From contig CAZRPA010000001.1 in NCBI GenBank assembly GCA_964601855.1, positions 23,275 to 87,274 on the forward strand: DNA of 64,000 nucleotides. Direction: 5' to 3'. A model generated the notes under the pieces. The model did no database searches. It was not told the origin of the DNA and worked only from the letters and a program-made list of their open reading frames with translations. Shown piece by piece: positions 1,943 to 18,393 of the stretch; the stretch's first letter is position 1; every line of letters starts with the position of its first letter. The position numbers were made by a program, and so were the translations under genes. The DNA comes from an uncultured Flavipsychrobacter sp. (GTDB taxonomy: Bacteria; Bacteroidota; Bacteroidia; Chitinophagales; Chitinophagaceae).

Positions 1943-3412
1943 TTGAAAAATTTATCAGTCATAGGTAGTGGGTTCTCGGGCATGTCTGCGGCAGCATTTC
2001 TGGCGCAGGCTGGTCACAAAGTTTCTGTATTTGAGAAAAACAATACTACCGGCGGCAGGGCAAGAGCTTTTGAGGCACAGGGTTTTACATTCGATATGGG
2101 TCCTAGTTGGTACTGGATGCCCGATGTATTCGAAAAATTCTTTGGTAGCTTCGGCAAACACCCTTCCGATTATTACAACCTCGTTCAGCTCGACCCTGGC
2201 TTTCAAATCATCTTTGGCAAAGATGATGTACTCCCCATCCCTGCCTCGCTCGATGGTATCTATCAGGTATTCGAAAGCATAGAAAAGGGTAGTGCCGATA
2301 AACTCAAAAAGTTTATGGCAGAGGGCGAATACAAGTACAATACTGGCATGAAACAACTGGTGTACAAGCCAGCCTTTTCGTGGCTCGAGTTTATGAACCT
2401 CGACCTCATCAAGGGCGTAGCCAAGCTCGATGTGTTTCAGTCCGTAAGCAGTCACGTGCGCAGCTACTTTAAAGACGAACGCCTTGTTGCACTCATGGAG
2501 TTTCCGGTGCTCTTCCTAGGTGCCATGGCAAAGCAGATACCTGCACTTTACAGCCTCATGAACTATGCAGCCCTTTCTATGGGCACATGGTATCCGATGG
2601 GTGGTATGATGAAGATAGGCGAGGGCATGCAGTCTCTGGCTGAGTCTCTGGGTGCAGAGTTTTTTACAAGCAGCGAAATCAGCAAAATTCAGGTCAATGG
2701 CAGCACGGCCAGCGGCTTGCTTACTGCATCGGGCACAGTGCCCACTGACGGCATCATAGCCACCGGCGACTACCACCACATGGACCAGGTATTGCTCGAT
2801 GCCACTCACCGCAACTACAACGAGCAGTACTGGGAGGGCAAAACCTTTGCACCGTCTTGCCTCATATTTTATCTGGGTGTCAGCAAGAAAATCAAAAAAC
2901 TCATTCACCACAATCTGTTTTTCGATACCTCGCTCGATGTTCATGCCCGTGAGATCTACGAATCACCACAGTGGCCTTCACAGCCCCTGTTCTATGTATG
3001 TTGTCCGTCTAAGACCGACCCCTCAGTAGCGCCAGAGGGTATGGAAAACCTCTTTTTACTCGTGCCCATAGCACCGGGCTTGCAAGACACAGAAGAGCTA
3101 AGGCAGAAATACTACAACATCATCATGAAGCGCATAGAGGATCTTTGCGACGACTCTATCTTGCCATATGTAGTGTACAATAAAAGTTATTGTATCAAAG
3201 ATTTTGTAGCCGATTACCACGCCTACAAAGGCAACGCATACGGACTGGCCAACACCCTGCGCCAAACAGCAGTACTCAAGCCATCATTGCGCAACAAAAA
3301 AGTAACCAATTTATTCTATGCAGGTCAGCTCACTGTGCCAGGGCCAGGAGTACCACCCGCACTCATTTCCGGACAGGTTGCAGCAGAGCAGCTATTAAAA
3401 AGTTTGAAGTAA
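1943..3412 (+). CDS. crtI: phytoene desaturase
   Basis: 489 aa. N-terminal FAD Rossmann motif VIGSGFSGMSAAAFLAQAGHKVSVFEKN..GGRA and C-terminal FYAGQLTVPGPGVPPALISG are typical of CrtI. The start is TTG because an in-frame TAA lies at 1934-1936. Confidence 0.92.
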   Translation: MKNLSVIGSGFSGMSAAAFLAQAGHKVSVFEKNNTTGGRARAFEAQGFTFDMGPSWYWMPDVFEKFFGSFGKHPSDYYNLVQLDPGFQIIFGKDDVLPIPASLDGIYQVFESIEKGSADKLKKFMAEGEYKYNTGMKQLVYKPAFSWLEFMNLDLIKGVAKLDVFQSVSSHVRSYFKDERLVALMEFPVLFLGAMAKQIPALYSLMNYAALSMGTWYPMGGMMKIGEGMQSLAESLGAEFFTSSEISKIQVNGSTASGLLTASGTVPTDGIIATGDYHHMDQVLLDATHRNYNEQYWEGKTFAPSCLIFYLGVSKKIKKLIHHNLFFDTSLDVHAREIYESPQWPSQPLFYVCCPSKTDPSVAPEGMENLFLLVPIAPGLQDTEELRQKYYNIIMKRIEDLCDDSILPYVVYNKSYCIKDFVADYHAYKGNAYGLANTLRQTAVLKPSLRNKKVTNLFYAGQLTVPGPGVPPALISGQVAAEQLLKSLK

Positions 3413-4281: not shown

Positions 4282-4818
4282 ATGGAACAAGTAATACTAG
4301 TAGATACGCACGACGAGCAAGTAGGTACCATGGAGAAACAAGAAGCACACATCACCGGTCTGCTACACCGTGCAGTATCAGTGTTTGTCTTCAATACGCA
4401 GGGCCAGTTACTCCTGCAGCAGCGTGCCGCAGGCAAGTACCACTCTGCCCTCCAGTGGACCAACACCTGTTGCAGCCACCCCCGCCCCGGCGAGGATGTA
4501 GCCGCAGCAGCTCACCGTCGCCTGCAAGAAGAGATGGGCTTCACCTGCCCACTCCAGAAATCCTTCACCTTTATATACAATGCCAGCCTCAGCAATGGCC
4601 TCATAGAGCACGAGTATGACCATGTATTCACCGGCATCAGCAACACCATACCCATCCCCGATGCCGCCGAAGTAGCCCAGTACACCTACATGAGCCTGCC
4701 CGACATCAAAGCCGCCATTGCCGCCACCCCTCATCAGTTCACACCCTGGTTCAGGTTGTGCATCTCCGACTGGGAGGCAGCATTACTCCAAAACTTAACA
4801 CCATCTACCGATGCTTAG
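4282..4818 (+). CDS. idi: isopentenyl-diphosphate delta-isomerase, type 1 (Nudix)
   Basis: 178 aa. LHRAVSVFVFN..G.LLLQQRA..KYHS...WTNTCCSHP and EHEYDHVF match the type-1 IDI active-site Cys/Glu context. Confidence 0.88.
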   Translation: MEQVILVDTHDEQVGTMEKQEAHITGLLHRAVSVFVFNTQGQLLLQQRAAGKYHSALQWTNTCCSHPRPGEDVAAAAHRRLQEEMGFTCPLQKSFTFIYNASLSNGLIEHEYDHVFTGISNTIPIPDAAEVAQYTYMSLPDIKAAIAATPHQFTPWFRLCISDWEAALLQNLTPSTDA

Positions 4819-6086: not shown

Positions 6087-6124
6087 GCAGAAAAATGTAT
6101 TTTATGTACATGTTTCTGCTTTTT
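6087..6124 (+). terminator. rho-independent terminator of the carotenoid operon
   Basis: GCAGAAAAATGTA (6087-6099) pairs with TACATGTTTCTGC (6107-6119). The stem is 13 bp with one mismatch and a 7-nt loop, followed by TTTTT (6120-6124). Confidence 0.7.
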
Positions 6125-6228
6125 GTGCCCCACATTAGGATAATATTGCACCCAATATGAGAATTATTTTTTTTGATATTTGCCAATATTAACAAGATTT
6201 TTATTGCAATAAGTATCACACTAGAATT

Positions 6229-6882
6229 ATGACTGAATTATTTAAGCTAAAAATTGCGGATGGTTTCCCAGCCGAATATCAAGAGGCTAATTTCGGCATA
6301 CAATTAAATGCGGAAGAATATAATAAGCTTTTTGACGGCATGTACGCAGAAAATATGGAAAGCAAGTGGCATATTTTTGGTTTGGGTGATATTATTTTCT
6401 TCGCTCGAAGTTGGACTTTATTTTGTGTATATAAGGTGTTTATAAAGAAAATAGATGACAATTACATACTAGAGAAAATTCAAGTCAACAGAAACCAACA
6501 ACAGTATAGAAGTTGGGGAATCGAACAAGATATCATTTGGCTTAAAATGTTATTAAGGGCATATTTGCAAAGAGAGGATTTATATATAGATCCCGAACTA
6601 AGCATACCTGTAGTTAAGAATACTATAGAACAAGTAGATCCAAATAATGAATACAACAAAAGTGTTGGCACTTCTAATAGTATCGCCCTTACCAGAAGTA
6701 TCCATACCAGCATTGATTCTGGATGGACTGATTTGGAACGGAATCTGAGGAACAGACCAGATGAAGAGACTTTAATTTCCGTTCATCTTTGGAGGAGAGA
6801 AAACCCCAAAGATTCTTTCACAATGTATTTCGATAAAGAAGGGAAAACTTTATTGGGCAGGATACAAATAAACAGAAGATAA
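6229..6882 (+). CDS. hypothetical protein
   Basis: 217-aa ORF with an ATG start in the AT-rich island. I recognise no motif. Confidence 0.55.
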   Translation: MTELFKLKIADGFPAEYQEANFGIQLNAEEYNKLFDGMYAENMESKWHIFGLGDIIFFARSWTLFCVYKVFIKKIDDNYILEKIQVNRNQQQYRSWGIEQDIIWLKMLLRAYLQREDLYIDPELSIPVVKNTIEQVDPNNEYNKSVGTSNSIALTRSIHTSIDSGWTDLERNLRNRPDEETLISVHLWRRENPKDSFTMYFDKEGKTLLGRIQINRR

Positions 6883-6937
6883 AAAATGATATCTATATAT
6901 ATCCTTCTCCAAACTCAAATCTTAAATTGTGCTTTCT

Positions 6938-7696
6938 ATGCTAAAAGGCACTTTGTGTAGACTTTTTCTCTTTTTGCAGGTTTTATTAGGGCAATATTGT
7001 TACGGGCAACAATATACTAATGACACTCTGTTCAATAAATTCAGAAAAAATATACAAACATTACAAGAAAAGTATGATGGGATAGTTAGGTGGGATGATG
7101 AAACACGTGAAGCATACTATTTATTGCTCTCTACTCATTCAGTTGAAGCTCTTGTAAACTACACTGATGATTCTATCCCGGCTGTTCGCGCAATTATATA
7201 TGTTGGTTTGGCTCAAATAAATGCAGATCAAAAACTTCTTAAAGAAATTCTAAACAAGCATATAAATGATACAGCAAAATTTAGTGAAGGCTCTACTGAT
7301 GTAATATTATCTTGGTCAGTCCAAGGATATATGCAGTTTGTTTTGGATTGTCATAATAGCAACAAATTTAAATATGTAGATTTTAATGATAGGATTGATG
7401 AAATTAGACGCAAACGTTTTGTTTTTGTATCTGGAGCGCATCATGGATTTATTAAAAAAGACTCTTTATTGAAAGATGATAGTTTAATTTCTATACAGGC
7501 AGGTTTTAAAATAATTTCATTTACTCTATTTTTTAGAGAAGAAACATTTCAATCGAGCAATGTTCTAAGTAAGCGATTGAAAAGAAAAATCAAGAGGTTA
7601 AGATCAGGGGAAAGCATTTTTATCGAAAACATTAAGGCTGAAGGGCCTGACAAATCATGGAGAAAATTCTCCCCAATTTTTTTAATAGTTCAATAA
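6938..7696 (+). CDS. hypothetical exported protein
   Basis: ORF 6929-7696 (GTG). ATG 6938 gives the signal-peptide-like MLKGTLCRLFLFLQVLLGQYCYGQQ. No family recognised. Confidence 0.55.
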   Translation: MLKGTLCRLFLFLQVLLGQYCYGQQYTNDTLFNKFRKNIQTLQEKYDGIVRWDDETREAYYLLLSTHSVEALVNYTDDSIPAVRAIIYVGLAQINADQKLLKEILNKHINDTAKFSEGSTDVILSWSVQGYMQFVLDCHNSNKFKYVDFNDRIDEIRRKRFVFVSGAHHGFIKKDSLLKDDSLISIQAGFKIISFTLFFREETFQSSNVLSKRLKRKIKRLRSGESIFIENIKAEGPDKSWRKFSPIFLIVQ

Positions 7697-7814
7697 AACC
7701 ATCCGGTTTACATATTGGTTTGATGTTCCAGTATAGGGTACAATATCGAACCAGTTAATGACCGCATTGAAACGCATTTGTGAATTTTGTGTTCTGATAG
7801 AGGAAGAATAGGAA

Positions 7815-7852
7815 TTTTGTGCCAACATTTGACGTTAAAAATCGGCACAAAA
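7815..7852. terminator. hairpin between convergent genes (possible bidirectional terminator)
   Basis: 9-bp perfect stem TTTTGTGCC (7815-7823) / GGCACAAAA (7844-7852) with a 20-nt loop. It lies between the 3' ends of 6938-7696(+) and 7859-8521(-). Confidence 0.4.
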
Positions 7853-7858
7853 AGTCAA

Positions 7859-8521
7859 CTACCATAACTTCCACCATGGTTTAGAATCATATTGCTGAGG
7901 CTCTAGAGAAATACTTCCATATTTGTAGCCTATTAAATTCGTATCAAAAAGTGTTTTATCGGCACTATTAAGTTCTACTCCAAAATATCTCGTACAAATG
8001 GAGAATACGAAGTTCTCTCCAACCTGATCTTCACTAAAGATTTCTTCTGGAAAGTCATCCAACACGTAAATCCTTTTACCACTACTATCGAGGTTTGATT
8101 TGCTCAATAGGTCGTTTTCTTCCGCTAATGGCAACCCAACCTCAACAAAAGTCCCGTCGTCGGAGCTACCAGCCCTTGCTCTTACTTTCGTTCCGTTAAT
8201 AATTATGGAATAGCCCCAGAGATTTATTGTGCTATGTAAAACTATTGCGCAAATTTCTGAGTTAGGGAAAAGTTTTTTAAACTTATTTTCAAGATAGGTT
8301 TCAGTCTCCTCAAAGAATTGCATGGGAATATCGGGTGTACATAGTATAATGTTGTTTTCATAAGTACCTATGTAAACTTTTTTGTTCCCCGGATCTCTGG
8401 CAGTTTCAAATGGTTCGTCTTTGATCTTTGTTAGTTTATTGAAGCCCATTTTTTGAAGTAATTGTTCGTTTGCAGCCCGAGCCGGGTTGTGAATAATCAC
8501 AATTGAAGCTTTCCATCCCAT
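7859..8521 (-). CDS. hypothetical protein
   Basis: 220-aa ORF with an ATG start (MGWKASIVIIHNP...). No signal peptide and no motif recognised. Confidence 0.55.
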   Translation of the reverse strand: MGWKASIVIIHNPARAANEQLLQKMGFNKLTKIKDEPFETARDPGNKKVYIGTYENNIILCTPDIPMQFFEETETYLENKFKKLFPNSEICAIVLHSTINLWGYSIIINGTKVRARAGSSDDGTFVEVGLPLAEENDLLSKSNLDSSGKRIYVLDDFPEEIFSEDQVGENFVFSICTRYFGVELNSADKTLFDTNLIGYKYGSISLEPQQYDSKPWWKLW

Positions 8522-8600
8522 ATGCAGAATTATAGGTTGAATGTACGGAAAAGTAGAAATTCTGAACGTAGATTAAATATTCCAGTAAAGTTATAAGAGC

Positions 8601-8625
8601 AAAACCCGCTCAAAAAGCGGGTTTT
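8601..8625 (-). terminator. terminator hairpin downstream of tRNA-Leu
   Basis: AAAACCCGC (8601-8609) / GCGGGTTTT (8617-8625), a 9-bp perfect stem with A/T-run arms, located 5 nt beyond the tRNA 3' end. Confidence 0.6.
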
Positions 8626-8629
8626 AAAA

Positions 8630-8716
8630 TGGTGCCCAGGACTGGATTCGAACCAGCACATCCTTGCGAACGCTGCGACCTGAACACAGTGCGTCTACCA
8701 ATTTCGCCACCTGGGC
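8630..8716 (-). tRNA. tRNA-Leu (anticodon CAG), CCA encoded
   Basis: The reverse complement folds by hand into a cloverleaf. Acceptor GCCCAGG/CCTGGGC, D-arm GCG-AAATTGGTAGA-CGC, anticodon stem CTGTG/CGCAG with loop TTCAGGT, a 15-nt long variable arm, T-arm GCTGG-TTCGAAT-CCAGT, discriminator A plus CCA. Total 87 nt. Confidence 0.93.
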
Positions 8717-8750: not shown

Positions 8751-8862
8751 AATAAGTATTTCGAATCTGCGAAGTTTTTTTGTGGATTCAGTTCCTATAT
8801 GCTTAGTTGATTTTGGACAAGATTCATAAGCAGATGTAAAATTGCATGCAGTACATGAAGTA

Positions 8863-9384
8863 TTAATTTTTACCAACAAATTTCCAATCACTCAATGCCG
8901 CACTTACAATAACATAAGGCCACATTTCGTAAGAAGCTAATTTAGCCTTTACGGGAAGCACATTTGTGGTTATCCATTTGTTGTTCTGCATTACAAGTAT
9001 ATCTGTAGTGTATGTCAAATCATTTTCAAACGGATTCTCTACTTTTAGCAGCATCATTTCATGCTTTTTACCAGCCACTTTCTGAGTCAAGCTTATTGAC
9101 AATGTTTTGTCAGGATGAATATTCTTTTTCACGCTCCTTAACCTTTCAATTTTTCCGTATTTAATATCCACTTCCAGATATACTACTTCGCCTGGGTATA
9201 TTTGCAGTATGTTGGGTCCTTTCACATAAGGCGAGGCATCTATTTTCGACTCGTAGAAGTTTTCTTCATCTACAGCCAGTTGCAGTGTAAAAGGCTTTCT
9301 TTCATCCCATTCATTATCAATCTGAGCACTCGCCACAAAGCTATTTAATATACAAATCAGCATTGCTTTCAAAAATAATTTCAT
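8863..9384 (-). CDS. hypothetical exported protein
   Basis: ORF 8863-9408. ATG 9384 gives the signal peptide MKLFLKAMLICILNSFVASAQ. No family recognised. Confidence 0.55.
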   Translation of the reverse strand: MKLFLKAMLICILNSFVASAQIDNEWDERKPFTLQLAVDEENFYESKIDASPYVKGPNILQIYPGEVVYLEVDIKYGKIERLRSVKKNIHPDKTLSISLTQKVAGKKHEMMLLKVENPFENDLTYTTDILVMQNNKWITTNVLPVKAKLASYEMWPYVIVSAALSDWKFVGKN

Positions 9385-9482
9385 ATAATTGGATTTTACA
9401 TCATGCAATGTAGTAATTGTTTTCTTCTTACTTTTACTTTTCTTCCCAGACTCCCTATATCTATAAATGTAAACTCCTTTTT

Positions 9483-10523
9483 ATGAAAGAAATAATATTA
9501 TTACTTACTTTAACTATAGTTAGTGTCGGTTTTTATTCTTGCTCGAATGTGCCACAACCAGATAGTAAAGAATTAGATGGTCTTCGATTCGATTCTATAA
9601 CATTGATGTTTGATTCTTCAAATAAGTTGAATTATTCAGTTTTACCTCTATTCGATCAAACTGTTTTCGATACTATTACCACAAGAAGATTTTACGAACT
9701 TGCCGATAAAACAGGTGGTGAACTAAAAGTTTTAGTAAACAATAAATTGCTCGTAACTACTATTAAGAGCATTATAAAAAGTCATGTCGAAGAAAACACG
9801 GACCTTTTGTTTCTTATAGACAAAACAGGAAGTATGAGTGACGACATAGACGTTATTAGGTCTGGTATGATACCATTGATGAGCCAAATAAATAATATTG
9901 GTAATGTTCGTTTGGCAATAGCATTATATGGTGATAAAAACGTGGATGGCCCAGAATGGTTCACTTTTAAAGACTTTGGAAATAATTTTGACAATGCTAT
10001 CGATTTCATGGAATCAATATATGTTACAGGCGGCGGCGATTGGCCTGAGTCTGTCTATGATGCAGTATTTAAGGTAGATGAATATAAATTCTGGAGGTCA
10101 TCGGCAAAAAAAGTGATTGTATTGATAGGGGATGCTTGTCCACTTGAGAAGCCACTTAGTGACCATTCTATCAATGAAGTTATAGATAGGTCTGTAATTG
10201 ATGAAGTAGCAATGAATTTTTACCCCATTGTTGTTACTCCACTCGAACAAGGTTCTCCTGAACTATCTGCTGCTTACACTTATATCGAAGAAAAAATACT
10301 CAAAGATTTTCGTGTAGATGATTCTGGTATTTTCTTTTCATTTAATTCAGAAGATGAATACAAAATATTCGTTTATAACCAGTCAGGAAAGCCAGTATTG
10401 TACAAGAAGACTAAAGGCACGATCTTTACTGAGAACATCAGCAAGCTACCTAGAGGTAGTTACGTTTTTAGAGTGCTTCGAAGTGATAAAGTATATGAAA
10501 CTAGAAAATTCAGTATAAATTAG
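9483..10523 (+). CDS. von Willebrand factor A domain lipoprotein with probable T9SS C-terminal sorting domain
   Basis: ATG 9483 gives a lipoprotein signal (LLTLTIVSVGFYSC). vWA MIDAS-like DLLFLIDKTGSMSDD, then VTGGGDWPES and VIVLIGDA. The last ~70 aa (...YKIFVYNQSGKPVLYKK..LPRGSYVFRVLRSDKVYETRKFSIN) resemble a Por/T9SS CTD. Confidence 0.7.
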   Translation: MKEIILLLTLTIVSVGFYSCSNVPQPDSKELDGLRFDSITLMFDSSNKLNYSVLPLFDQTVFDTITTRRFYELADKTGGELKVLVNNKLLVTTIKSIIKSHVEENTDLLFLIDKTGSMSDDIDVIRSGMIPLMSQINNIGNVRLAIALYGDKNVDGPEWFTFKDFGNNFDNAIDFMESIYVTGGGDWPESVYDAVFKVDEYKFWRSSAKKVIVLIGDACPLEKPLSDHSINEVIDRSVIDEVAMNFYPIVVTPLEQGSPELSAAYTYIEEKILKDFRVDDSGIFFSFNSEDEYKIFVYNQSGKPVLYKKTKGTIFTENISKLPRGSYVFRVLRSDKVYETRKFSIN

Positions 10524-10624
10524 AATGTTCAGCTTGGAATAGGAATCATTCTAAATCACACTTACATCTCGTCATCCAATCTGGTCCATGCCCCTTTGGT
10601 TCAAGTGTCCACAGATAAATTTGG

Positions 10625-10675
10625 CGCGAGTGTTTTCCACTCGTGTCTAACTATCGGCAAGTCTTTTCGACTTGC
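10625..10675. terminator. two tandem hairpins with identical TTTTC loops between convergent genes
   Basis: Hairpin 1 spans 10625-10645 (CGCGAGTG-TTTTC-CACTCGTG, with one G.U pair). Hairpin 2 spans 10657-10675 (GCAAGTC-TTTTC-GACTTGC). No U-tract follows either. Confidence 0.35.
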
Positions 10676-10742
10676 GTAAAATCTATATCTCAAATTGTGG
10701 ATTCAGTTAACCTTTTCAGCCCAAGTCTATTAATAAACAACG

Positions 10743-11183
10743 CTAACTACGCCGGAAAATTTTTCTAATAAACACCTCTAATAGATTCGGTTTTGCACTC
10801 AATTCTGATGGATTCGATTTCACATTGAATATTGTAGTATTGTCTATGACATATTTTATCCGATAACCATACTCTCCATGTCTACCACCAGCCCAACTTA
10901 AATAGTAAAAGCGAACAGGTCTTTTACATCCGGGACAATAAAAATCCAAAAATGAATTAGTTTCAGTCCTTACCGTATCGTTTATTATATTTTCAATTTC
11001 CAATACATCTTCTTGTCTTAGATTCGTGAAATCTGAACGACTATGTTTAGAAAAGTTTCTAAAATTGAAAAATACCGATTCACCACAACCACATGTATAT
11101 TGTGCTTCAGGATATATTTCCCAATCATCAATGCCATTAAAATCAACTTTGTCAAGAATTGATTCTGCGAGATTAACTTTCAT
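10743..11183 (-). CDS. hypothetical protein with two Cys pairs (possible zinc ribbon)
   Basis: ORF 10743-11276, with the start trimmed to ATG 11183 (MKVNLAESIL...). YTCGCGES and YCPGCKRP are separated by ~50 aa. Confidence 0.5.
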   Translation of the reverse strand: MKVNLAESILDKVDFNGIDDWEIYPEAQYTCGCGESVFFNFRNFSKHSRSDFTNLRQEDVLEIENIINDTVRTETNSFLDFYCPGCKRPVRFYYLSWAGGRHGEYGYRIKYVIDNTTIFNVKSNPSELSAKPNLLEVFIRKIFRRS

Positions 11184-11391
11184 AACTCGAATGTAGGCGT
11201 TTATATAGAAACTGGTACTAAGATTTCTTAGCACGTTCCTCCTCTGTTTCAAGCAATCCCATTTGCGAAAACACAAATCCTACAAGGGCACAACAAATGA
11301 AATAAGTTCCGCTATTTTCTAATAGTATCTTAAGAATCTATCAATCTGTACATTTGTACCAGTGACGGGTGGTTAGTGACACCTACACCTC

Positions 11392-11745
11392 TTGTTATTG
11401 TTTGCAATCTCTGTACTATTGAAATCCAAAGTAAACATAAAGTTTGGGCTGTTAGCTTTTCTTACGCTTTTGCTCACAGCAGTCTTGTCTTTCATCAATT
11501 TATCTGAATTTGTAATAGTTGGGTTATTAAAAAACACAACTGGCTATCCTTTTGGTAGTGAAGGACCCGTGCCTTGGTATTACAAATCAGCGGAAGTTTA
11601 TGCCAACTTTAATTTAGTCACTGGAATGTTTTTTCTGCTAGCTTTTCTCGCATCTCTTTGGGCAGTGTCCAAGAGAAAAGAAGTAATTACATTGATTATT
11701 TTCCTAACCACCATTTTGTCTGCTCTTATCATGATATGTGTATAG
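11392..11745 (+). CDS. hypothetical membrane protein
   Basis: 117-aa ORF with three to four hydrophobic segments. Only a TTG start is available, so the coding status is uncertain. Confidence 0.35.
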   Translation: MLLFAISVLLKSKVNIKFGLLAFLTLLLTAVLSFINLSEFVIVGLLKNTTGYPFGSEGPVPWYYKSAEVYANFNLVTGMFFLLAFLASLWAVSKRKEVITLIIFLTTILSALIMICV

Positions 11746-11977
11746 TATATAGTTACTATTAAGGTCTGAGTATCTTTACCAAGCCCCCACTCATGCCCCC
11801 CAAGAAATTGTGGATAAAATAATTACTGCCACCACCACATTGGCTCGTTATTTGTGGCATAGGGTAGGGGGGCGGTGGTGTGGCGCACTAGCAAAAGTTA
11901 AGAACTAAGCAGATGGGATATTTTAAAACTTATTTTTTGTCACATGAATTCAATAAGTACTGGATTAATTCTAAAAC

Positions 11978-12361
11978 ATGGACAGAACAACAGCTATCAA
12001 TAACATAATAGATATCCCAATTAGATGTGCAAATGGCAATAAATCATTTGTAGCATTCTTGAAGGATAGTGGTTATCTCGAATTTTCCGATATTAATGTA
12101 AGTGAATTAATAAAAGCAATAAGTGTTAATGAAGAAATAGCGAATGACTGGTTTCAATGGTCAGCTGATAAAAGAGTCGATAAAGGTTGGTTCTTCATAG
12201 AAAATGCCGGTAAATATGCTGTAGGGTATAGTCCAGCAACTGAAGGTTATAGACAATTTATTTATGACGATAAGATCGAAGCCTGTGCTAATTTTATTTT
12301 AAAGGAAATTGAAAGTTGTGGCCTGTTTACCGGAAAAATGAATACCATTGATAATCAATGA
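11978..12361 (+). CDS. hypothetical protein
   Basis: 127-aa ORF with an ATG start. Its last ~11 codons and its stop lie inside repeat copy C1. Confidence 0.5.
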   Translation: MDRTTAINNIIDIPIRCANGNKSFVAFLKDSGYLEFSDINVSELIKAISVNEEIANDWFQWSADKRVDKGWFFIENAGKYAVGYSPATEGYRQFIYDDKIEACANFILKEIESCGLFTGKMNTIDNQ

Positions 12362-12410
12362 CTTACGTACCAAAACCCATGAAAACACCGGCAACAAACC
12401 GGCAAAACCG
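12327..12410 (+). repeat. 84-nt intergenic repeat, copy C1 (most divergent)
   Basis: taccggaaaaatgaataccaTTGATAATCAAtgacttacgtaccaaaacccatgaaaacACCGGCAAcaaACCGGCAA. The palindrome is at 12347-12357. It overlaps the stop codon of ORF 11978-12361. Confidence 0.85.
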
Positions 12411-12526
12411 GAAATTAACTGTAAACCCAATATGAAACAAAAACACCAACAAAGTAACACACATCATAAGAATCATAATAATCTGGTAAATCAGTGGTTC
12501 AGACTAATTCACTACCAGCAAATCCA

Positions 12527-12610
12527 CCCAATACCAGCAAAAGTGAACACCATTGATAATCAATCACTTATCTATCAAAACATAGGAAACAACCGGCAAC
12601 AAACCGGCAA
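12527..12610 (+). repeat. 84-nt intergenic repeat, copy C2
   Basis: cccaataccagcaaaagtgaacaccaTTGATAATCAAtcacttatctatcaaaacataggaaacaACCGGCAAcaaACCGGCAA. The palindrome is at 12553-12563. It is preceded by an extra 13-nt duplicate of the 5' arm (CACTACCAGCAAA, 12510-12522). Confidence 0.9.
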
Positions 12611-12698
12611 ATCATGCAAAGCAGTCATTTATTTCAGAGCAAGCAAACCTTATTGTTTTTTTACTTGTCTAGTTACTATACACCTAACAATTTTTCTT

Positions 12699-13658
12699 AT
12701 GAAATACCCATCCAGCTCACAGCTCGTATCTTGCCTGTCTATTTTGTTACTCACAGCTGGTTGTCAGCCCAACGATCCAGTAGGCCCCTCAGCAATTACT
12801 TGCCCCGTGCCCGCCGAAATCTATGCCTACAGAGCTACACACACCGAAACTACAGCCACTTACCCCTGTGTTTTCGGCAAAATCAACACTACTACGGGCA
12901 CCAGCACCAGCATGGCATCATTTGCCGGTAACGTACAATTCCGTCAAGCTGCCTTCCACATTACCGAAAACAATTATTATACCTTCAAATTTAATGATAC
13001 CACCCGCACACTGCTCAGCATATCTATGAGCGGAACGGTTACACCCCTGTCAAACGCAGCAGTAGGCAGCCGTTTCGATGGGCTGATATACAACAGGTTC
13101 AACAGTAAGTTGTATTGTTTTCGCACCTCTGCCGGTGTCAGCCATATAGCCGAGATTACTGTTTCTGGCACTACCTACACTACCACTGATGTAGCAACAA
13201 CCCTGCACCCTCAGATGTACGATAACGCCACCGTCGATCCAGCAACTGGTGCTATCTACTACCAAACCAAACCAGCCTCAGCTACCACCTACAACATAGA
13301 GAAGTACATCCCCGGCGGCTCAGTGACCACCATTTGCACAGCCATGCCGGTAGATGTTAGTGGCCTCAGGTACAACACCAACGACAATTTGTTGTATGCT
13401 ATTCGTCCCGGTATGACAGCCTATGAATTTGTGAAGATCAATAGTTCGGGTACTATTACCACATTGTCTACTCCTGTCGGGTACGTCGATACCAAGTTCT
13501 ATTCAGCATGTATAGACCCATGCACAGATCATTATATATTTTCTTGCAAAAGCCTCAATACAGCCACAGGTCACCTATACCATATATCCACTACAGGCGC
13601 AGTTATGCAACACGATTCCGCAGCCACCATGTACCAAGGCTTAAGTGTGAAGTATTAG
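12699..13658 (+). CDS. hypothetical lipoprotein
   Basis: ATG 12699 within ORF 12348-13658 gives the lipobox MKYPSSSQLVSCLSILLLTAGC. The protein is Thr/Ser/Tyr-rich and looks beta-rich. No family recognised. Confidence 0.65.
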   Translation: MKYPSSSQLVSCLSILLLTAGCQPNDPVGPSAITCPVPAEIYAYRATHTETTATYPCVFGKINTTTGTSTSMASFAGNVQFRQAAFHITENNYYTFKFNDTTRTLLSISMSGTVTPLSNAAVGSRFDGLIYNRFNSKLYCFRTSAGVSHIAEITVSGTTYTTTDVATTLHPQMYDNATVDPATGAIYYQTKPASATTYNIEKYIPGGSVTTICTAMPVDVSGLRYNTNDNLLYAIRPGMTAYEFVKINSSGTITTLSTPVGYVDTKFYSACIDPCTDHYIFSCKSLNTATGHLYHISTTGAVMQHDSAATMYQGLSVKY

Positions 13659-13687
13659 TATCGTGTTCTATATCACAGGAAAATCCT

Positions 13688-13771
13688 CCCACTACCAGTA
13701 AAAGTGAATAGTGTTGATAATCAATGAGTTATACCACAAAACACACGAAACAACCGGCAACAAACCGGCAA
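13688..13771 (+). repeat. 84-nt intergenic repeat, copy C3
   Basis: cccactaccagtaaaagtgaatagtgTTGATAATCAAtgagttataccacaaaacacacgaaacaACCGGCAAcaaACCGGCAA. The palindrome is at 13714-13724. It starts 29 nt after the stop of 12699-13658. Confidence 0.9.
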
Positions 13772-13918
13772 TTCCTGCAATCATACTATGTATTTCTAAA
13801 AGTATATTTGTCTCTGTACGCTACAATTTATTTTTATAGCTCACCAAGGTTCTACCCCAATATATACGTCTATATCTATAGAACACCTGTATTATTTGTA
13901 ACCTTATAATTGCTGTAT

Positions 13919-15517
13919 ATGAAACACCTGTACCTAATACTAATCCTTACAAGCATCCTAGCAAGCCCTTCCGCTTCAGCTCAAAGCTGGTTATGGGCCA
14001 CAAACTTTAGTATCGATGACGAAAGTGTCATACCCTCTATGGACAAAGATCCATCAGGCAATCATATATTAAGTTGTTTGGGTTTGATAGCCAAGTACGA
14101 TGCATCTGGTAACTTGTTATGGCGCAAAGATCCATCCACAGGGTTCAGAGCTCGGGTTACAGATGTCAGTACAGATACTGCTGGCAATATCATTATAGTA
14201 GGTATTTTTTCAGACACCCTCACATTCGATACCATAAGTGTAGTAGGTCCCGGACTCACTGATATTTTTGTGGTTAAGTATAATGGTGCTGGCAATGTGT
14301 TATGGGCTAAAGTTATTAGCACAGCCAGCCTCGATAATGTAGGTGCTGTAAGCACAGATAGGTCTGGCAATATATTTGTATCAGGTTATTTCACAGACAG
14401 TAGTATCACTATCGATACCACCACGCTCACCGGCACATCAGATGCCAGTACTTTTTTGGTCAAGTATTCCCCCTCTGGCAGTGTCATTTGGGGTAGGGTT
14501 TTAAGCTGTGCAGGTCCTTCACCATCTTACTGTAGGCCCAAAGCAATGGCTGTAGACAATAATGGCGATGTTGTTGTCACCGGCGATTATACAGGTACTT
14601 CTATGACCATTGGCACCACTACCTTAACCGCTACCACAGGCACTTATCTCGGCGATGTTTTTGTAGTAAAGTATAGCAATTCAGGCAACATACTATGGGC
14701 CAATGGTATCGCCAGCGATGATTATGACGCCGCCTTCGATATGGCTACAGACGGTGTAGGCAATAGTTATGTTATCGGGCATTTTCTGGGAAACAATCTC
14801 TATGCAGGGGCTTTTCACCTCACCAATACTTCTATGACCAATAAAAGTGATGTTTTTGTTGTAGCCTACGACCCATTAGGTAATGTGCGTTGGTTGAATC
14901 GGATTGGTACTCCTGGTGATAACGAAGGAAGAGCGATAGCTACAGATATTGCTGGTAATGTGTATGTATCAGCTTATTATGTCGATACATCTATTACATT
15001 TGGCAGCACTACATTGTACAATACCACTTTTGGGGTTACAGGTGTCAATGCGATTATAGCCAAATATAACACTTCAGGTGCCGAGCAGTGGGCAATAAAT
15101 GTAGGTGGCAATGTTGGGGATATTGTATCAGCCCTCGAAACCGATAATTCAGGAAATATTTATGCCTTCGGTATGACAGCAAGCAACACGCTTACGCTAG
15201 GTGCCACCACTTTAGTTAACACAGGCTCATTTTACGGCGACTTCTTTTTTGCCAAATTGAGCCAAACCACCTCTGTAAATGATGTAGTTGAAAACAAAAA
15301 ATCAGTTTTCCTATACCCCAATCCCGTATCAGATGTATTAACCATCTTATCCGAGGAGCCTATAGAAACTTTGTCCATAGTAGATGTCTGCGGTTGGCAA
15401 ATCGTGCATAGTGGTAATTATTCAAAACAAATCCGTATCAACACCAATAGCATCGCACCTGGGCTATACCACGTAGTTGTGAATAACAGTATTGTAAAAC
15501 AATTTACTAAAAGATAG
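13919..15517 (+). CDS. SBBP (beta-propeller) repeat protein with T9SS C-terminal sorting domain
   Basis: Signal peptide MKHLYLILILTSILASPSASAQ. Repeated D..GN(I/V)(Y/F)V(S/T)G(Y/F) units (GNIIIVGIF, GNIFVSGYF, GDVVVTGDY, GNSYVIGHF, GNVYVSAYY, GNIYAFGMT). C-terminus VFLYPNPVSDVLTI....APGLYHVVVNNSIVKQFTKR is a type-A T9SS CTD. Confidence 0.85.
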   Translation: MKHLYLILILTSILASPSASAQSWLWATNFSIDDESVIPSMDKDPSGNHILSCLGLIAKYDASGNLLWRKDPSTGFRARVTDVSTDTAGNIIIVGIFSDTLTFDTISVVGPGLTDIFVVKYNGAGNVLWAKVISTASLDNVGAVSTDRSGNIFVSGYFTDSSITIDTTTLTGTSDASTFLVKYSPSGSVIWGRVLSCAGPSPSYCRPKAMAVDNNGDVVVTGDYTGTSMTIGTTTLTATTGTYLGDVFVVKYSNSGNILWANGIASDDYDAAFDMATDGVGNSYVIGHFLGNNLYAGAFHLTNTSMTNKSDVFVVAYDPLGNVRWLNRIGTPGDNEGRAIATDIAGNVYVSAYYVDTSITFGSTTLYNTTFGVTGVNAIIAKYNTSGAEQWAINVGGNVGDIVSALETDNSGNIYAFGMTASNTLTLGATTLVNTGSFYGDFFFAKLSQTTSVNDVVENKKSVFLYPNPVSDVLTILSEEPIETLSIVDVCGWQIVHSGNYSKQIRINTNSIAPGLYHVVVNNSIVKQFTKR

Positions 15518-15563
15518 GACAATTACTGTTGGGGAAATACTTTAATGTATTGGTGTCGCCTCG

Positions 15564-15647
15564 CCCACTACCAGCAAAAGTGAATAGTATTGATAATCAA
15601 CCACTTACGTACCAAAACCCATGAAACAACCGGCAACAAACCGGCAA
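15564..15647 (+). repeat. 84-nt intergenic repeat, copy C4
   Basis: cccactaccagcaaaagtgaatagtaTTGATAATCAAccacttacgtaccaaaacccatgaaacaACCGGCAAcaaACCGGCAA. The palindrome is at 15590-15600. It starts 46 nt after the stop of 13919-15517. By hand alignment, 72 of 84 positions are identical to C3. Confidence 0.9.
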
Positions 15648-15745
15648 TCTGCATAAACACCTAACAATAATGATTACCTCAAAATAATCTTATCATTTCA
15701 AGCAACAACAGACTACTTATACCACCAACAAAGAATAATTATTGA

Positions 15746-15753
15746 TATTTTTG
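15746..15753 (+). promoter_or_regulatory. Bacteroidota -7 promoter box
   Basis: TATTTTTG matches TAnnTTTG and ends 17 nt before ATG 15771. Confidence 0.4.
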
Positions 15754-15770
15754 TACAAACTACTTGCCTC

Positions 15771-16907
15771 ATGAATCGTCTATCACTCCTCGCCATTAGC
15801 TGCATGGCACTTTTGAATGCTTGTTCAGGTGGCCCATCTACGGGCACTGATCAGGTAGACGTATTCGACAAAACTACTATAGAGCGTATAGCGCAGGGCA
15901 GTCGTGAGTTGCAGCAAAAAGCCCTAAAGCAATATGAGGAAGGAACACTAAACCTCAGAAAAGGAAACAACCCATACGATGCTATTGATCTCTTATTGCA
16001 GTCACTCCGCAACTATCCCACAGCTCGCACTTATTTTGAGCTAGGCAATGCTTACGCAAAAGCCAAAAACTACGAAAAAGCTGTAAAAAGTTATGAGCTA
16101 GCAGAACAATTGGGCTTTGCACCAGTGGCCAATGTATTATACAACATGGCATGTGCCTATTCTTTGTTAGAGAAAAAGGAAGAAGCAAGAAATTACCTAG
16201 AGTATGCCATTGAGGCTGGCTATGTAGACAAAAACAACATCATAAACAATCCTGACCTGCAAAATCTGAAAGATTATGGGCTTAATCAGGCATTAGAAAC
16301 AGCTATGAGTGGTGTAGACAATCCTGAAAATGTAGTATGGGATGGTTATGTGCAAAACTTCAAACGGCTAGTACTACCCGTTACACTCGATATCAACTCA
16401 GAAAAAGAACTAAAAGAAAATGATTATATGTCATTCAGCTATGAGCGATATATCACCGAAATGAGGTACAGAGAAAGATTTTCCAGATCCACTGGCGACC
16501 TTTACTATGCATACGGATTAGTAGATGAAAACAGCAACTATATAGCTGTGATATATGCTGAGAAACCTGATTTTGAAATGTCGGCACCATTACCAGCCCG
16601 GTACATACTAGCATCCTACAACAAAAAAGGTGTGCTGATAGATAAGTTGACGGTATGTGGGCAAAAAAAGCCTGAGGACACATTTAGGGTTTGCACTATA
16701 CATCCTAACCTGACAATGCAGATAAGTATGCATATGAACAAATACAAGACCATAGCAGATGAAGATAGATACACGAAGCTAGAGCTAGAATCGTCTGAGC
16801 CGGCAGGTACCTTGTATTATCTGATCAATGAATCTGGAAAATTTGTAGAAACTGGTGCGCCACTGGGTGCTACAGATGTAAAAGGAAGTAAGGTTAGTGG
16901 GTCTTGA
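15771..16907 (+). CDS. TPR-repeat lipoprotein
   Basis: Lipobox LLAISCMALLNAC. TPR-like units (YFELGNAYAKAKNYEKAVKSYELA, YNMACAYSLLEKKEEARNYLEYAIEAG). The C-terminal ~200 aa are unassigned. The 3' end overlaps the convergent gene by 14 nt. Confidence 0.7.
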   Translation: MNRLSLLAISCMALLNACSGGPSTGTDQVDVFDKTTIERIAQGSRELQQKALKQYEEGTLNLRKGNNPYDAIDLLLQSLRNYPTARTYFELGNAYAKAKNYEKAVKSYELAEQLGFAPVANVLYNMACAYSLLEKKEEARNYLEYAIEAGYVDKNNIINNPDLQNLKDYGLNQALETAMSGVDNPENVVWDGYVQNFKRLVLPVTLDINSEKELKENDYMSFSYERYITEMRYRERFSRSTGDLYYAYGLVDENSNYIAVIYAEKPDFEMSAPLPARYILASYNKKGVLIDKLTVCGQKKPEDTFRVCTIHPNLTMQISMHMNKYKTIADEDRYTKLELESSEPAGTLYYLINESGKFVETGAPLGATDVKGSKVSGS

Positions 16908-17529
16908 AGCGGTTTAGCCAGCCTCTACGTATCAGTACTTCTGCAACGAGTAGGTTGATGGTCCAGCTTAGCCAAGCTATGAGTATGTAGGCAGTAACAG
17001 GTCGGATATCTAACCCCAAATACCCTATAAGAAAAGCATAAGCCCTAAGTGTAAGAGCCGACAGAGCTAGTGCATAACTGCGTAGCATGTACTGTGCATG
17101 TGACTGCCATTGCCGCTTATATACATGCCGCATGGCTACCGCAGTAGTGCCCAGCCACAGCAGAGATAGCAGCACAAAGCTAACCCTGGCAGGGGTGCCA
17201 CCATTAGCATAAAACGCCATTACCAGCCCCGTAGGCCCGCTCAACAGCAACACTACTATGCTGTACACATAGCCTGAAAACCGGTGCAACACCCTGTGGC
17301 GGGTAATAAACTGCAACAAGCCTGCGACTAAAACAAGCGTACTGGTGAAAACGTGTATGTAAAAGCTGATGCGCCAATGGGATATGTGGTAGATGTGGGT
17401 TTTGGTGAGCAGAAAGTCAATATTAGGAGCTATGTGTGTGTAGGGCAATGACAACCTCACCATCAGGTATACACCATACAGTATAGCAGCTACAATAAGC
17501 ATAGCCATAACGTTACCGATAGTGCGCAT
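16894..17529 (-). CDS. membrane protein, DUF2306-like
   Basis: 211 aa with ~6 TM segments. The family assignment comes from overall pattern recall only. Confidence 0.6.
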   Translation of the reverse strand: MRTIGNVMAMLIVAAILYGVYLMVRLSLPYTHIAPNIDFLLTKTHIYHISHWRISFYIHVFTSTLVLVAGLLQFITRHRVLHRFSGYVYSIVVLLLSGPTGLVMAFYANGGTPARVSFVLLSLLWLGTTAVAMRHVYKRQWQSHAQYMLRSYALALSALTLRAYAFLIGYLGLDIRPVTAYILIAWLSWTINLLVAEVLIRRGWLNRFKTH

Positions 17530-17537
17530 ATGCTCTG

Positions 17538-18281
17538 CTAATATTGATCTAGTGTTAAAATGCGGTCGTTGCAGTGTAGGGTAGGGGTGTAGTAGTCCGA
17601 TGCTGTATCATACTTTACAGAATCTCTGGCAAAGATGCTGCGGGTTGAAGAAAAGACTTCATTTTCTTCCCAGTCTATAGTGTAACTACCATCTTTTAGC
17701 ACCCAGCTACCATTTACAGTAGTTATTTGGCTCTTATCACCTTTGGCAGAGTCATTGTAAAACTCATAAACACATTGTCCGTTTTGGTCGAATGTGATGC
17801 GGTGCAGACTGTCTGAATAAGATGCATAGTTGTCATAGTAATTTTCAGATTCTGTTTTTTTAATCAATGAAAATGTGACTGGTGACTCTTGTGCATTATT
17901 TCTAGGTGTCCATGTGCCAGACAGTAACAAGGTAGCTTTATCTATTTTTATGTCTAAGTAGCCATCTGTAGGGTTGTTGCCTGGCTGCTTCAGCGATAGG
18001 TGATACACATCGTCTAGCACCTCCATGGGGCCACTTACATTACGCCTTACGCCTTTTAGCAAAGTGTAACCCACCACATTTTTACCAGTCACCTTTCGTA
18101 GGGTCAGGTATATAACATGCTCTCCAAACGCCCCTGAATATACGCCCTCTACTGAGGCATAATCATTGTCTGGCGGGAAAATACTATGTGCAGGCGGCAC
18201 TGTGTAGCGTGTAGATGTACCAGAATTGCAGGCAGAAAATATGATAACTAAAAGCCCAAATACAAGGATATTAAAACGCAT
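17538..18281 (-). CDS. hypothetical lipoprotein
   Basis: ORF 17538-18320. ATG 18281 gives MRFNILVFGLLVIIFSAC. Confidence 0.6.
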   Translation of the reverse strand: MRFNILVFGLLVIIFSACNSGTSTRYTVPPAHSIFPPDNDYASVEGVYSGAFGEHVIYLTLRKVTGKNVVGYTLLKGVRRNVSGPMEVLDDVYHLSLKQPGNNPTDGYLDIKIDKATLLLSGTWTPRNNAQESPVTFSLIKKTESENYYDNYASYSDSLHRITFDQNGQCVYEFYNDSAKGDKSQITTVNGSWVLKDGSYTIDWEENEVFSSTRSIFARDSVKYDTASDYYTPTLHCNDRILTLDQY

Positions 18282-18393
18282 AAGGCATGAGTATAATAAA
18301 GTAAAATAGGTTGTAACCAATGAAAAACAGCTATCAGTGGTGTACCAAAGATAGCTGTTGTAAATATAATGAGATGAAATTATGAGATAAAAA

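Follow-up and report, generated by a model that had tools for sequence, protein, structure and literature searches.

A leader-headed family of co-oriented tandem repeats in Flavipsychrobacter and its relatives that shares homology with a repeat inside a TerS-like protein gene

Repeat units at a tRNA-Leu locus and in related genomes

The 64-kb stretch of contig CAZRPA010000001.1 from an uncultured Flavipsychrobacter sp. (the window) contains four copies, C1 to C4, of an ~84-nt element interspersed with protein-coding genes. A repeat search recovered them as co-oriented matches (12315–12414, 12520–12619, 13681–13780 and 15557–15656) with 71–100% identity over 100 nt, in line with a previous sequence-only reading of this DNA. 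Motif counts were far above chance: the 20-mer AACCGGCAACAAACCGGCAA occurred four times on the + strand at ≤1 mismatch (0.01 expected) and the 5′ module of the element three times (0 expected). A profile built from ~40 copies found exactly the four copies that had been claimed and none beyond C1–C4. Our recount likewise agreed on 72 of 84 identical positions between C3 and C4, on the last 25 nt common to C2, C3 and C4, on the distances of C3 and C4 from the preceding stop codons (29 and 46 nt, respectively) and of C2, C3 and C4 to the next start codons (88, 147 and 123 nt), and on the overlap of C1 with an open reading frame (ORF; 11978–12361), whose last codons and stop fall within the copy. 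The proposed coordinates held for C2, C3 and C4, whereas those of C1 (12327–12410) were 5 nt out of register; at that position, ungapped identity to the other copies was merely 16–21 of 84, and the core in register spans 12322–12405.

The array and its surroundings comprise the following features, compared where indicated with L002 and L025, two loci that are syntenic with the window around the tRNA-Leu gene:

8630–8716, − strand: tRNA-Leu(CAG) gene (ARAGORN and Rfam tRNA), anchoring the hypervariable locus that contains the array
11777–11887, + strand: array leader, short variant (AAATTGTGGATAAAATAATTACTGCCACCACCACATTGGCTCGTTATTTGTGGCATAGGGTAGGGG; leader profile E=1e-21)
11978–12361, + strand: 127-aa ORF without Pfam match, separating the leader from the first unit; missing in L002 and L025
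12322–12405, + strand: C1 unit core in register (profile match 12312–12436, E=3e-32); orthologue of L002 unit 1
12406–12526, + strand: A/C-rich C1–C2 linker, the remainder of the ~205-bp unit
12527–12610, + strand: C2 unit core, immediately adjoining unique DNA on its 3′ side; orthologous to unit 2 in L002 and to the final unit in L025
12699–13658, + strand: lipoprotein gene (319 aa, no Pfam match), a cassette-like insert between units; absent from L002 and L025
13688–13771, + strand: C3 solo unit core (profile match 13673–13787, E=8e-28)
13919–15517, + strand: gene for a β-propeller protein secreted by the type IX secretion system (T9SS; SBBP repeat and Por_Secre_tail), between units; absent from L002 and L025
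15564–15647, + strand: C4 unit core; orthologue of L002 unit 3
15771–16907, + strand: TPR lipoprotein gene downstream of the array; kept in L002, absent from L025 along with the next two genes

C1 is a long-form unit that runs on into the linker AAACCGGAAATTAACTGTAAACCCAATATGA..., and this linker shows translated homology to the repeat region of a TerS-like protein family (see below). The T9SS β-propeller gene has its own −7 box (TATATTTG) at 13803, and the −7 box of the gene after C4 (TATTTTTG, at 15746) lies outside the element. A 436-aa ORF listed at 12348–13658 (+) starts with 117 spurious codons, because the A/C-rich array has few stops and by chance shares its frame with the lipoprotein gene, whose true start is 12699. 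Comparable artefactual ORF extensions cross arrays at other loci.

The element belongs to a narrow, lineage-specific repeat family. An exact scan with an invariant 19-mer, covering one genome per species, returned 60 loci, and the full element was present in ~40 copies at 31 of these. Element-bearing assemblies came from four relatives, namely two Flavipsychrobacter metagenome-assembled genomes (MAGs), one ‘Sphingobacteriales’ MAG (JAIXSZ) and one ‘Bacteroidetes’ bin; the remaining 19-mer matches were chance hits in unrelated phyla. A profile search of the 31 loci in the four related genomes brought the number of copies to ~95. Syntenic loci of Flavipsychrobacter-named MAGs shared 85–97% nucleotide identity with the window. 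Neither core nor leader matched viral contigs, and a metagenome scan with the 5′ module identified one true contig (L065) besides 17 chance matches in coding sequence.

The 84-nt element stands as a conserved core, but not as the whole repeat, which is a tandem unit of ~200 bp. The copies at every locus are confined to one strand and form clusters of 1–7 units with a period of ~150–250 nt (six units in L034 and L015, five in L060). The unit, whose top strand is ~70% A+C, approximately reads (A)ACCGGAAAAtgcatgcaaACCGGAAAAGTGAATagyATTGATAATCAAy-nAsTTA-NNNNNN-AAAACnCATGAAAnnACCGGCAAcaaACCGGCAA, the N positions marking a hypervariable 6-nt block within the conserved core. Internal units continue with AAACCrGAAATnAACAATAAACCCAATATGA and then an A/C-rich linker; the final unit of each array terminates at CCGGCAA, without exception. 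As the last units of arrays stop there, C2, C3 and C4 diverge right after CCGGCAA. Two arrays of the same assembly with different flanks, L012 and L026, share a 530-nt internal segment of 84% identity, and neither contains an ORF of ≥50 aa. In L012 (2000–5000, −), the whole module of lipoprotein gene, leader and array is duplicated, with 90% identity over 645 nt upstream of both leaders.

Twenty-one stand-alone arrays, including that of the window, are headed by a conserved leader of ~110–180 nt that was detected by profile and is always co-oriented with its units. It carries an inverted pair of DnaA-box-like 9-mers (AAATCCACA-N8-TGTGGATAT), and the sole perfect DnaA-box 9-mer in the window, TGTGGATAA, lies within the leader at 11809–11817. 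The fold of the leader was not significant (z=−0.09), nor was it tRNA-like (ARAGORN, 18 loci). A weak partial match to the leader profile (10662–10702, +; E=6e-4) was noted ~1.1 kb 5′ of the real leader and close to the 3′ terminus of the ORF at 10743–11276.

A TerS-like protein with a homologous repeat

At six loci, a gene for a protein of 430–473 aa lies immediately 5′ of the arrays, and the element profile matches inside its 3′ half. We refer to this protein as TerS-like, after the small terminase subunit (TerS) of phages. Read in its frame, the core (TTG ATA ATC AAC GAC TTA nnn nnn AAA ACn CAT GAA AAC ACC GGC AAC AAA CCG GCA) translates into L-I-I-N-D-L-x-x-K-T-H-E-N-T-G-N-K-P-A, and the protein contains two to three copies of LPENETSLIINDLxxKTHExTGNKPA. 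The units inside and outside the gene can be aligned base for base, bar a short shift that creates an intergenic TGA. The homology extends over whole arrays: cores and linkers together match protein residues ~235–430 in translation, hopping between frames, and linker modules match even the genic repeat of a homologue in L084 whose protein is 48% identical. Judged by these alignments, the intergenic units are non-coding relatives of the repeat in the TerS-like gene. The TerS-like ORF itself is real, because a conserved C-terminal domain that is not A/C-rich follows the repeats in frame, and because 33-nt hairpin insertions (11 codons, e.g. FSSHSSVAKAT or NLSVAVAFSEGYG) keep the frame within these genes.

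The TerS-like gene is present in at least five copies in JAIXSZ. A single terminal intergenic unit follows each of seven such genes, and homology between paralogous gene blocks ends at the CCGGCAA of that unit. Its promoter reads TTTG-N20-CACCTTTG. The leader profile never matched upstream of TerS-like genes, which ruled out the leader as the 5′ end of a TerS-like gene block. Across 46 relatives, the N-terminal ~190 aa are very conserved, the repeats are variable, and two alternative C-terminal tails occur, the type of tail being stable per orthologous locus. The N-terminal domain matches the phage family phrog_4151 (E=2e-20) and, weakly, the helix-turn-helix regions of small terminases and of IS3 OrfA. 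A Hankyphage homologue (BK010646.1; 27% identity over 140 aa) is annotated as terminase small subunit and encoded directly upstream of terL, portal and Mu-F genes, a similarity that points to kinship of the N-terminal domain with the small terminase of Bacteroides Mu-like phages. AlphaFold2 predicted a confident helical N-terminal domain, disordered repeats (pLDDT ~30) and a small C-terminal β-domain; neither Foldseek against the PDB nor a PDB sequence search gave a significant match.

More distant members of the family (P0041, P0045, P0048 [L084 8342–9628], P0057 and P0060) have other low-complexity repeats (ATTGNKSAIPATQ...; PGEAPSLTAKTGSNPA) in place of the LIINDL..KTHE repeats, or end in a SEC-C zinc motif. 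At the DNA level, ACAACCGGCAACAAAyCGGCAA is still present in L084.

The intergenic units are not coding. A TGA stands at codon −3, just 5′ of the palindrome described below, in 68 of 77 intergenic copies; 19 of 64 have stops inside the core, linkers shift the frame, and an overall 3-nt periodicity across the unit is absent. Frame B, the one used by the TerS-like gene, thus matches a genuine protein repeat, yet was rejected for the intergenic copies, which contain stops. Also rejected were frame A (TGKVNSIDNQ) and hydrophobic minus-strand ORFs, which show no periodicity, and small ORFs starting from the ATG of the unit or a conserved ATG/GTG of the leader, whose frame and length are not kept across copies.

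Neither is the unit a structured RNA. With Rfam 15, cmscan of the window gave no match to the element at gathering thresholds or at E≤10, and cmscan of seven loci gave none to units or leader at E≤1. The alifold consensus of both strands reached −3 to −5 kcal/mol, with pairing restricted to the invariant palindromes and no covariation, and folding z-scores for single unit and leader were near 0 (−0.4, −0.3 and −0.1). A terminator-like minus-strand hairpin (GCCGGTttgttGCCGGT plus T-run) turned out to be merely the CCGG direct repeat, again without covariation.

Sequence constraint, gene turnover and neighbouring genes

Comparison of the window with L002 revealed core identities of 88% (C1), 81.5% (C2) and 75% (C4), and 92% identity each for the C1–C2 linker and the leader. 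As neutral references, four-fold degenerate sites of adjacent orthologous genes were 59–64% identical, and the non-element intergenic sequence from C4 to the next ATG 64%. As the element (75–92%) exceeds the neutral range (59–64%), and as concerted evolution within a genome cannot slow divergence between species, we infer that intergenic units and leader are under purifying selection.

Conservation is blocky, with invariant ATTGATAATCAA, TTA, AAAAC and two ACCGG elements at fixed spacing. A 13-bp palindrome, ATTGATAATCAAy, of perfect 5+1+5 symmetry (TTGAT-A-ATCAA) overlaps a match (AATCAAnnAnTTA) to the consensus of integration host factor (IHF). This consensus, WATCAANNNNTTR (AATCAA-nnAn-TTA), is found in all four window copies (~0.006 expected per 84 nt) and in at least 95% of 78 intergenic copies; the window holds 12 matches in total against 4.7 expected, four of the 12 being the elements. 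An IHF-like host factor is documented in Bacteroides, for which E. coli IHF substitutes in vitro (PMC2034462). Four or five co-oriented ACCGG(A/C)AA boxes lie on both sides of the palindrome, the 3′ ones 11 bp apart, and both boxes show the C-to-A variant of ACCGG[C/A]AA at roughly equal frequency despite their different codon positions.

Among the motif look-alikes compared, only the IHF consensus fits the conserved columns. The spacing of CGGCAA-N5-CGGCAA would suit a sigma-54 promoter, but the −12 TT is missing and 14 of 76 copies have A in place of the −12 C. By our own inspection, a Fur box agrees at only 11–12 of 19 positions, an FNR box is wrongly spaced, and the core contains no Bacteroidota −33/−7 promoter elements on either strand.

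Genes between units are presence/absence variants across genomes. L025 consists of the leader and two units (U1, U2) followed by a direct junction to window position 18323, and L002 of leader, U1, U2, a spacer and U3, followed by three genes corresponding to 15771–18320. Extra in the window are the ORF before C1 and, between C2 and C4, the lipoprotein gene, C3 and the T9SS protein gene. Breaks in homology coincide with unit edges, i.e. they fall right after CCGGCAA or just before ACCrGmAAAAGTGAAT. Similarly, L034 has a gene for a YhcG nuclease between its units 6 and 7, which the orthologous L027 lacks. Homologues of the lipoprotein (62–65% identity) reside in element-free genomes, in an unrelated conserved context. 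The tRNA-Leu gene of the window adjoins the leader in L025 and lies 2.7 kb from it in L002. Around it, the window has low-GC blocks (0.32–0.36; 6094–8631 and 8789–11790) that are absent from the syntenic L025, and L002 holds different content, a 631-aa gene among it; taken as a whole, the surroundings of this tRNA gene form a hypervariable island.

Array positions are orthologous between species in seven sets (the uvrB 3′ flank; upstream of pheS, aat, ECF sigma factor and PorP genes; the tRNA-Leu locus of the window; others), so that arrays must be old and vertically inherited. This speaks against a small mobile element that targets gene boundaries, as had been suggested from the four window copies. 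With the array taken as +, ~11 arrays are in tandem and co-oriented with their neighbours (~8 independent loci), 9 are divergent, 8 convergent and 1 anti-oriented in tandem (L025). Downstream genes are heterogeneous across loci (pheS, aat, murB-like, ECF sigma factor, histidine kinase, DinB). Clusters of toxin-antitoxin genes (HigB/HigA, PIN/VapC, ParE, DUF5615) and an Mrr restriction gene were observed beside arrays and TerS-like genes (L026 1940–2710; L034 863–1267; L052 2330–2632; L013 1076–1420; L088 7924–9555).

Possible functions and relation to known repeats

Our favoured reading, held tentatively and with somewhat less than even confidence, is that the arrays are double-stranded DNA repeats to which protein binds, probably the TerS-like protein together with a DNA bender of the IHF/HU type. 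Intergenic units would work as double-stranded DNA, each core combining the 13-bp palindrome, an IHF/HU-type bend site and flanking ACCGG(A/C)AA boxes, of which the 3′ ones would be one helical turn apart, and tandem units would nucleate an oligomeric protein–DNA complex. The likeliest binder would be the TerS-like protein, whose own gene bears the same sites; phage terS genes, too, carry or adjoin their pac sites. We infer that the constraint on units and leader reflects protein binding, with TerS-like and IHF-like proteins as candidate binders. The repeated ~85-bp cores would also offer portable homology, accessory genes between units being gained, lost or replaced as a by-product, and recombination between units would cause the observed gene turnover.

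Several points weigh against this reading. The window contains no copy of the TerS-like gene, and the proposed link between gene and arrays draws on sequence homology and on co-occurrence in the same genomes. The IHF consensus derives from Proteobacteria, and the match was recognized post hoc, once several motifs had been compared. The constraint estimate comes from one orthologous locus in three genomes, and ascertainment of loci by an exact 19-mer biases the sample towards well-conserved copies. In intergenic cores, variability at the third codon positions of frame B is roughly double that at the first two (permutation p=0.04); some of the conservation seen could hence be inherited from coding copies or refreshed by conversion from them. 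Finally, the orientation bias (~8 independent co-oriented loci vs. one anti-oriented) would also suit a function at the transcript level.

Such a function might be exerted by an unstructured, A/C-rich RNA, transcribed from the leader or by read-through from the gene upstream, that serves as a sponge for protein or RNA, as an mRNA stabilizer or translation enhancer, or as a processing signal for adjacent genes. Besides the co-orientation of copies with neighbouring genes and the A+C bias of the top strand, it would account for the invariable position of arrays downstream of a ‘head’ (the leader or the 5′ half of the TerS-like gene), for the TerS-like gene promoter and a similar sequence (CACTTTTTG) in the leader, and for the Bacteroidota-like start context (AATAAACCCAATATGA) at the end of the long-form unit. 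We consider it rather doubtful, given the lack of RNA structure or covariation in the folding analyses, the ~8 arrays at convergent gene ends and the small ORFs from unit or leader ATGs that are not kept in frame or length; in our own reading, the leader also has neither a canonical TAnnTTTG box nor a correctly spaced −33 element. Furthermore, the best-conserved block is a palindrome that, being perfect (5+1+5), would give no useful RNA hairpin and rather points to a dimeric binder of double-stranded DNA. More specifically, the sequence-only reading had envisaged a regulatory leader or processing site for exported-protein genes. Indeed, of the four downstream genes in the window, three code for the lipoprotein, the T9SS cargo protein and the TPR lipoprotein, respectively, Por_Secre_tail is the most frequent Pfam domain among array neighbours (5 of 80), and palindrome plus direct repeats resemble an operator with response-regulator boxes. 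Across loci, however, downstream genes have no common theme, arrays of up to seven units contain no genes, ~8 arrays run towards the 3′ end of a gene of opposite orientation, L002 and L025 keep their units without the exported-protein genes, the TAnnTTTG −7 boxes after C3 and C4 lie outside the element, and the sigma-54-like arrangement fails (‘−12’ C to A in ~18% of copies). An operator or leader of an exported-protein regulon has thereby been largely refuted and appears extremely improbable. What survives of the proposed cis-acting module is that it is shared, constrained in orientation and evolving under constraint, not that it is specific to exported-protein genes.

Alternatively, the arrays could be selfish or neutral interspersed repeats in the manner of BIME, NIME or BrickBuilt elements, i.e. 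non-autonomous derivatives of the TerS-like gene block without host function, amplified by unequal crossing-over and with binding sites serving their own propagation only. They are dispersed, multi-copy and break assemblies (the Logan contig L079 is bounded at both ends by element fragments, and many TerS-like genes reside on 1–4 kb contigs); units within single arrays are near-identical (e.g. L060, L034); L026 and L012 share their 530-nt segment despite different flanks; paralogous gene blocks end exactly at CCGGCAA; and arrays are mosaic with other short repeats and nested GTAG hairpins, with a Y1 transposase nearby in L028. This explanation is unlikely, though of some weight. Old, immobile junk should have decayed, yet seven orthologous sets span species and identity is 75–92% against a neutral ~60%. 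Further points against it are the absence of terminal inverted repeats, target-site duplications and any transposase or recombinase recurring among 80 flanking ORFs, the lack of copies on viral contigs, and the presence of the family on only one extra metagenome contig. Integron-like recombination sites, or silent donor cassettes for conversion of TerS-like genes, with genes or protein tails between units mobilized by a recombinase in trans, would fit the co-oriented repeats that punctuate variable genes, the block boundaries at unit edges in the three-way synteny, the YhcG gene between L034 units 6 and 7 that L027 lacks, the toxin-antitoxin neighbours (as in chromosomal integrons), the two TerS-like tails placed between units like cassettes, and the hypervariable 6-nt block within the core. 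Nevertheless, the units have no attC-type imperfect inverted repeat or single-strand fold, no recombinase recurs near arrays, and there are many separate arrays rather than one platform. The flanks of the hypervariable block are not inverted, unlike core sites of tyrosine recombinases, the unique L002 spacer between units 2 and 3 is not expected from simple excision, tail type is stable by orthologous locus, and lipoprotein homologues elsewhere lack flanking elements. A cassette system of this kind is therefore improbable.

The protein-binding reading invites comparison with phage packaging sites. Lambda cosB comprises R sites and the IHF site I1, the pac site of P1 has hexamer repeats flanking an IHF site, and the pac sites of P22 and SPP1 lie within their terS genes. 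The present system resembles these in the TerS-type N-terminal domain (phrog_4151 match, Hankyphage homologue), in candidate sites inside or just after the protein's own gene, and in boxes around an IHF-consensus site. It differs from them in that the gene is chromosomal, with at least five copies per genome, and no large terminase, portal or other packaging genes were found within 10 kb of seven TerS-like gene copies; unlike phage TerS, moreover, the protein is fused to a long disordered repeat and a small β-domain. It is conceivable, albeit a long shot, that the arrays are chromosomal pac/cos-like platforms for the host-encoded, multi-copy TerS-like protein, whose coding repeats would have given rise to a genomic address system. 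Assembled on the many leader-headed arrays, the protein might then recruit a phage or gene-transfer-agent large terminase, so that packaging would start beside hypervariable accessory-gene loci (built-in lateral transduction), or the protein might be a decoy that sequesters or misdirects phage terminase as an anti-phage defence.

Intergenic interspersed repeats are common in bacteria and their function is seldom clear. Three unusual properties render that of the present family testable: signs of purifying selection between species over the whole unit and leader; a defined architecture of leader, co-oriented ~200-bp units and fixed boundary; and base-for-base shared ancestry with a translated repeat of the TerS-like protein, which makes the latter the obvious candidate partner. 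If this protein binds the arrays, the two would make up a host nucleoprotein system of a new type, with a phage packaging module as its origin, and binding might also explain the turnover of accessory genes at array sites. On the practical side, short-read assemblies are broken at arrays, whose A/C-rich DNA also gives rise to long ORFs that are spurious.

By their defining features, MITEs (miniature inverted-repeat transposable elements), REP (repetitive extragenic palindromic) sequences, attC sites, CRISPR arrays and Rfam families do not include this family, which we class among the interspersed bacterial repeats. Like the sequence-only reading, our repeat search and folding found no terminal inverted repeats, flanking duplications or long self-complementarity. 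The element does not qualify as an ordinary MITE: copies, arrays and paralogous gene blocks all lack bounding inverted repeats, no target-site duplication was seen at the flanks of 40 copies inspected, no transposase, recombinase or integrase family recurs among the 80 flanking ORFs, and the only related gene encodes the TerS-like helix-turn-helix protein, which has no catalytic domain. Rfam, folding, orientation and neighbour analyses also bore out the earlier view that the element does not resemble riboswitches, REP, CRISPR or attC. Regarding CRISPR, the conserved part is ~95–130 nt long, the ‘spacers’ are conserved linkers, and no cas genes are nearby. In Vibrio, VCR/attC sites are co-oriented ~100-nt repeats, highly similar per genome, that punctuate variable genes, often ones that defy annotation or belong to toxin-antitoxin systems. 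Co-oriented repeats separate variable genes here as well (window vs. L002/L025; L034 vs. L027); unlike in a chromosomal integron, however, there are many arrays per genome, no attC structure (no long-range complementarity on either strand), no IntI/attI, and no integrase among flanking ORFs or in the array region of the window.

Other families share single traits. NIME/dRS3 repeats of Neisseria are 50–150-bp units near surface-protein genes, thought to give homology for recombination and gene replacement, and are bounded by 20-bp inverted dRS3 repeats that are phage integration targets; our family has in common with these and with minimal mobile elements its intergenic arrays of repeat units, but has no dRS3-type boundaries. 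Rickettsia palindromic elements (RPEs) are palindromic and occur both in intergenic regions and in frame in many unrelated genes, where they encode tolerated peptide segments. Likewise, units and 33-nt hairpins are found both between genes and in frame within TerS-like genes, in the part that encodes the disordered linker; RPEs, in contrast, form no leader-headed tandem arrays. Especially close in architecture is BrickBuilt of Porphyromonas gingivalis, which consists of 23-nt repeats without spacers, has small inverted-repeat ends, qualifies as a MITE, is present in ~19 copies per genome and has a proposed promoter activity (Klein et al. 2015, PMC4596501). Both families are species-restricted and intergenic, with a leader and tandem units in tens of copies (BrickBuilt also has a tail), yet their sequences are unrelated, and ours differs in having ~200-bp units, no terminal inverted repeats and repeats derived from or common with a protein-coding region.

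REP sequences with their RAYT transposases and enterobacterial interspersed repeats have been described (Nunvar et al. 2010, PMC2817692; Di Nocera et al. 2013, PMC3733652). As in BIME, REP and RIP elements, short modules form intergenic mosaic arrays here, accompanied by nested hairpins (GTAGCC...GGCTAC, 32–34 nt) and an IS200-like Y1 transposase. Some of these known elements also contain an IHF site and bind host DNA proteins. Unlike those elements, the ~200-bp unit is leader-headed and homologous to a coding repeat, is no palindromic hairpin (it has no 20–40-nt GTAG- or CGTC-headed palindrome, only the nested insert fitting that description), and does not alternate in orientation, all units of a locus lying on one strand.

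The nested hairpin, T[TA]TyAGTAGCCATAGCttttnaGCGAmGGCTAC, occurs 19 times, though not in the array of the window. It always shares the orientation of its array. Fifteen of the 19 insertions follow ACC, and a CC^GG or CC^AG site of the unit is typically split (L034 [2415–2447, 3059–3091], L012, L020, L021, L025, L027, L029, L030, L032, L041, L050, L052, L058, L060 and L088). It looks like a REP-type element mobilized by a Y1 (RAYT) transposase. A candidate RAYT for these GTAG-headed hairpins, as opposed to the unit, is the 176-aa Y1 transposase of L028 (3887–4417; PF01797 Y1_Tnp, E=1e-8), encoded ~230 nt upstream of a leader and array. L028 (~4735–4810), L033 and L032 additionally have in common a two-hairpin module (GGCGTAGATTATATCTACGGCAGGCAyGGCAGCCGGTTTCCGACCGGCG), located downstream of the unit at 6091 in L033 and upstream of a TerS-like gene in L032. 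More generally, the DNA upstream of leaders is a mosaic of additional short repeats common to several loci.

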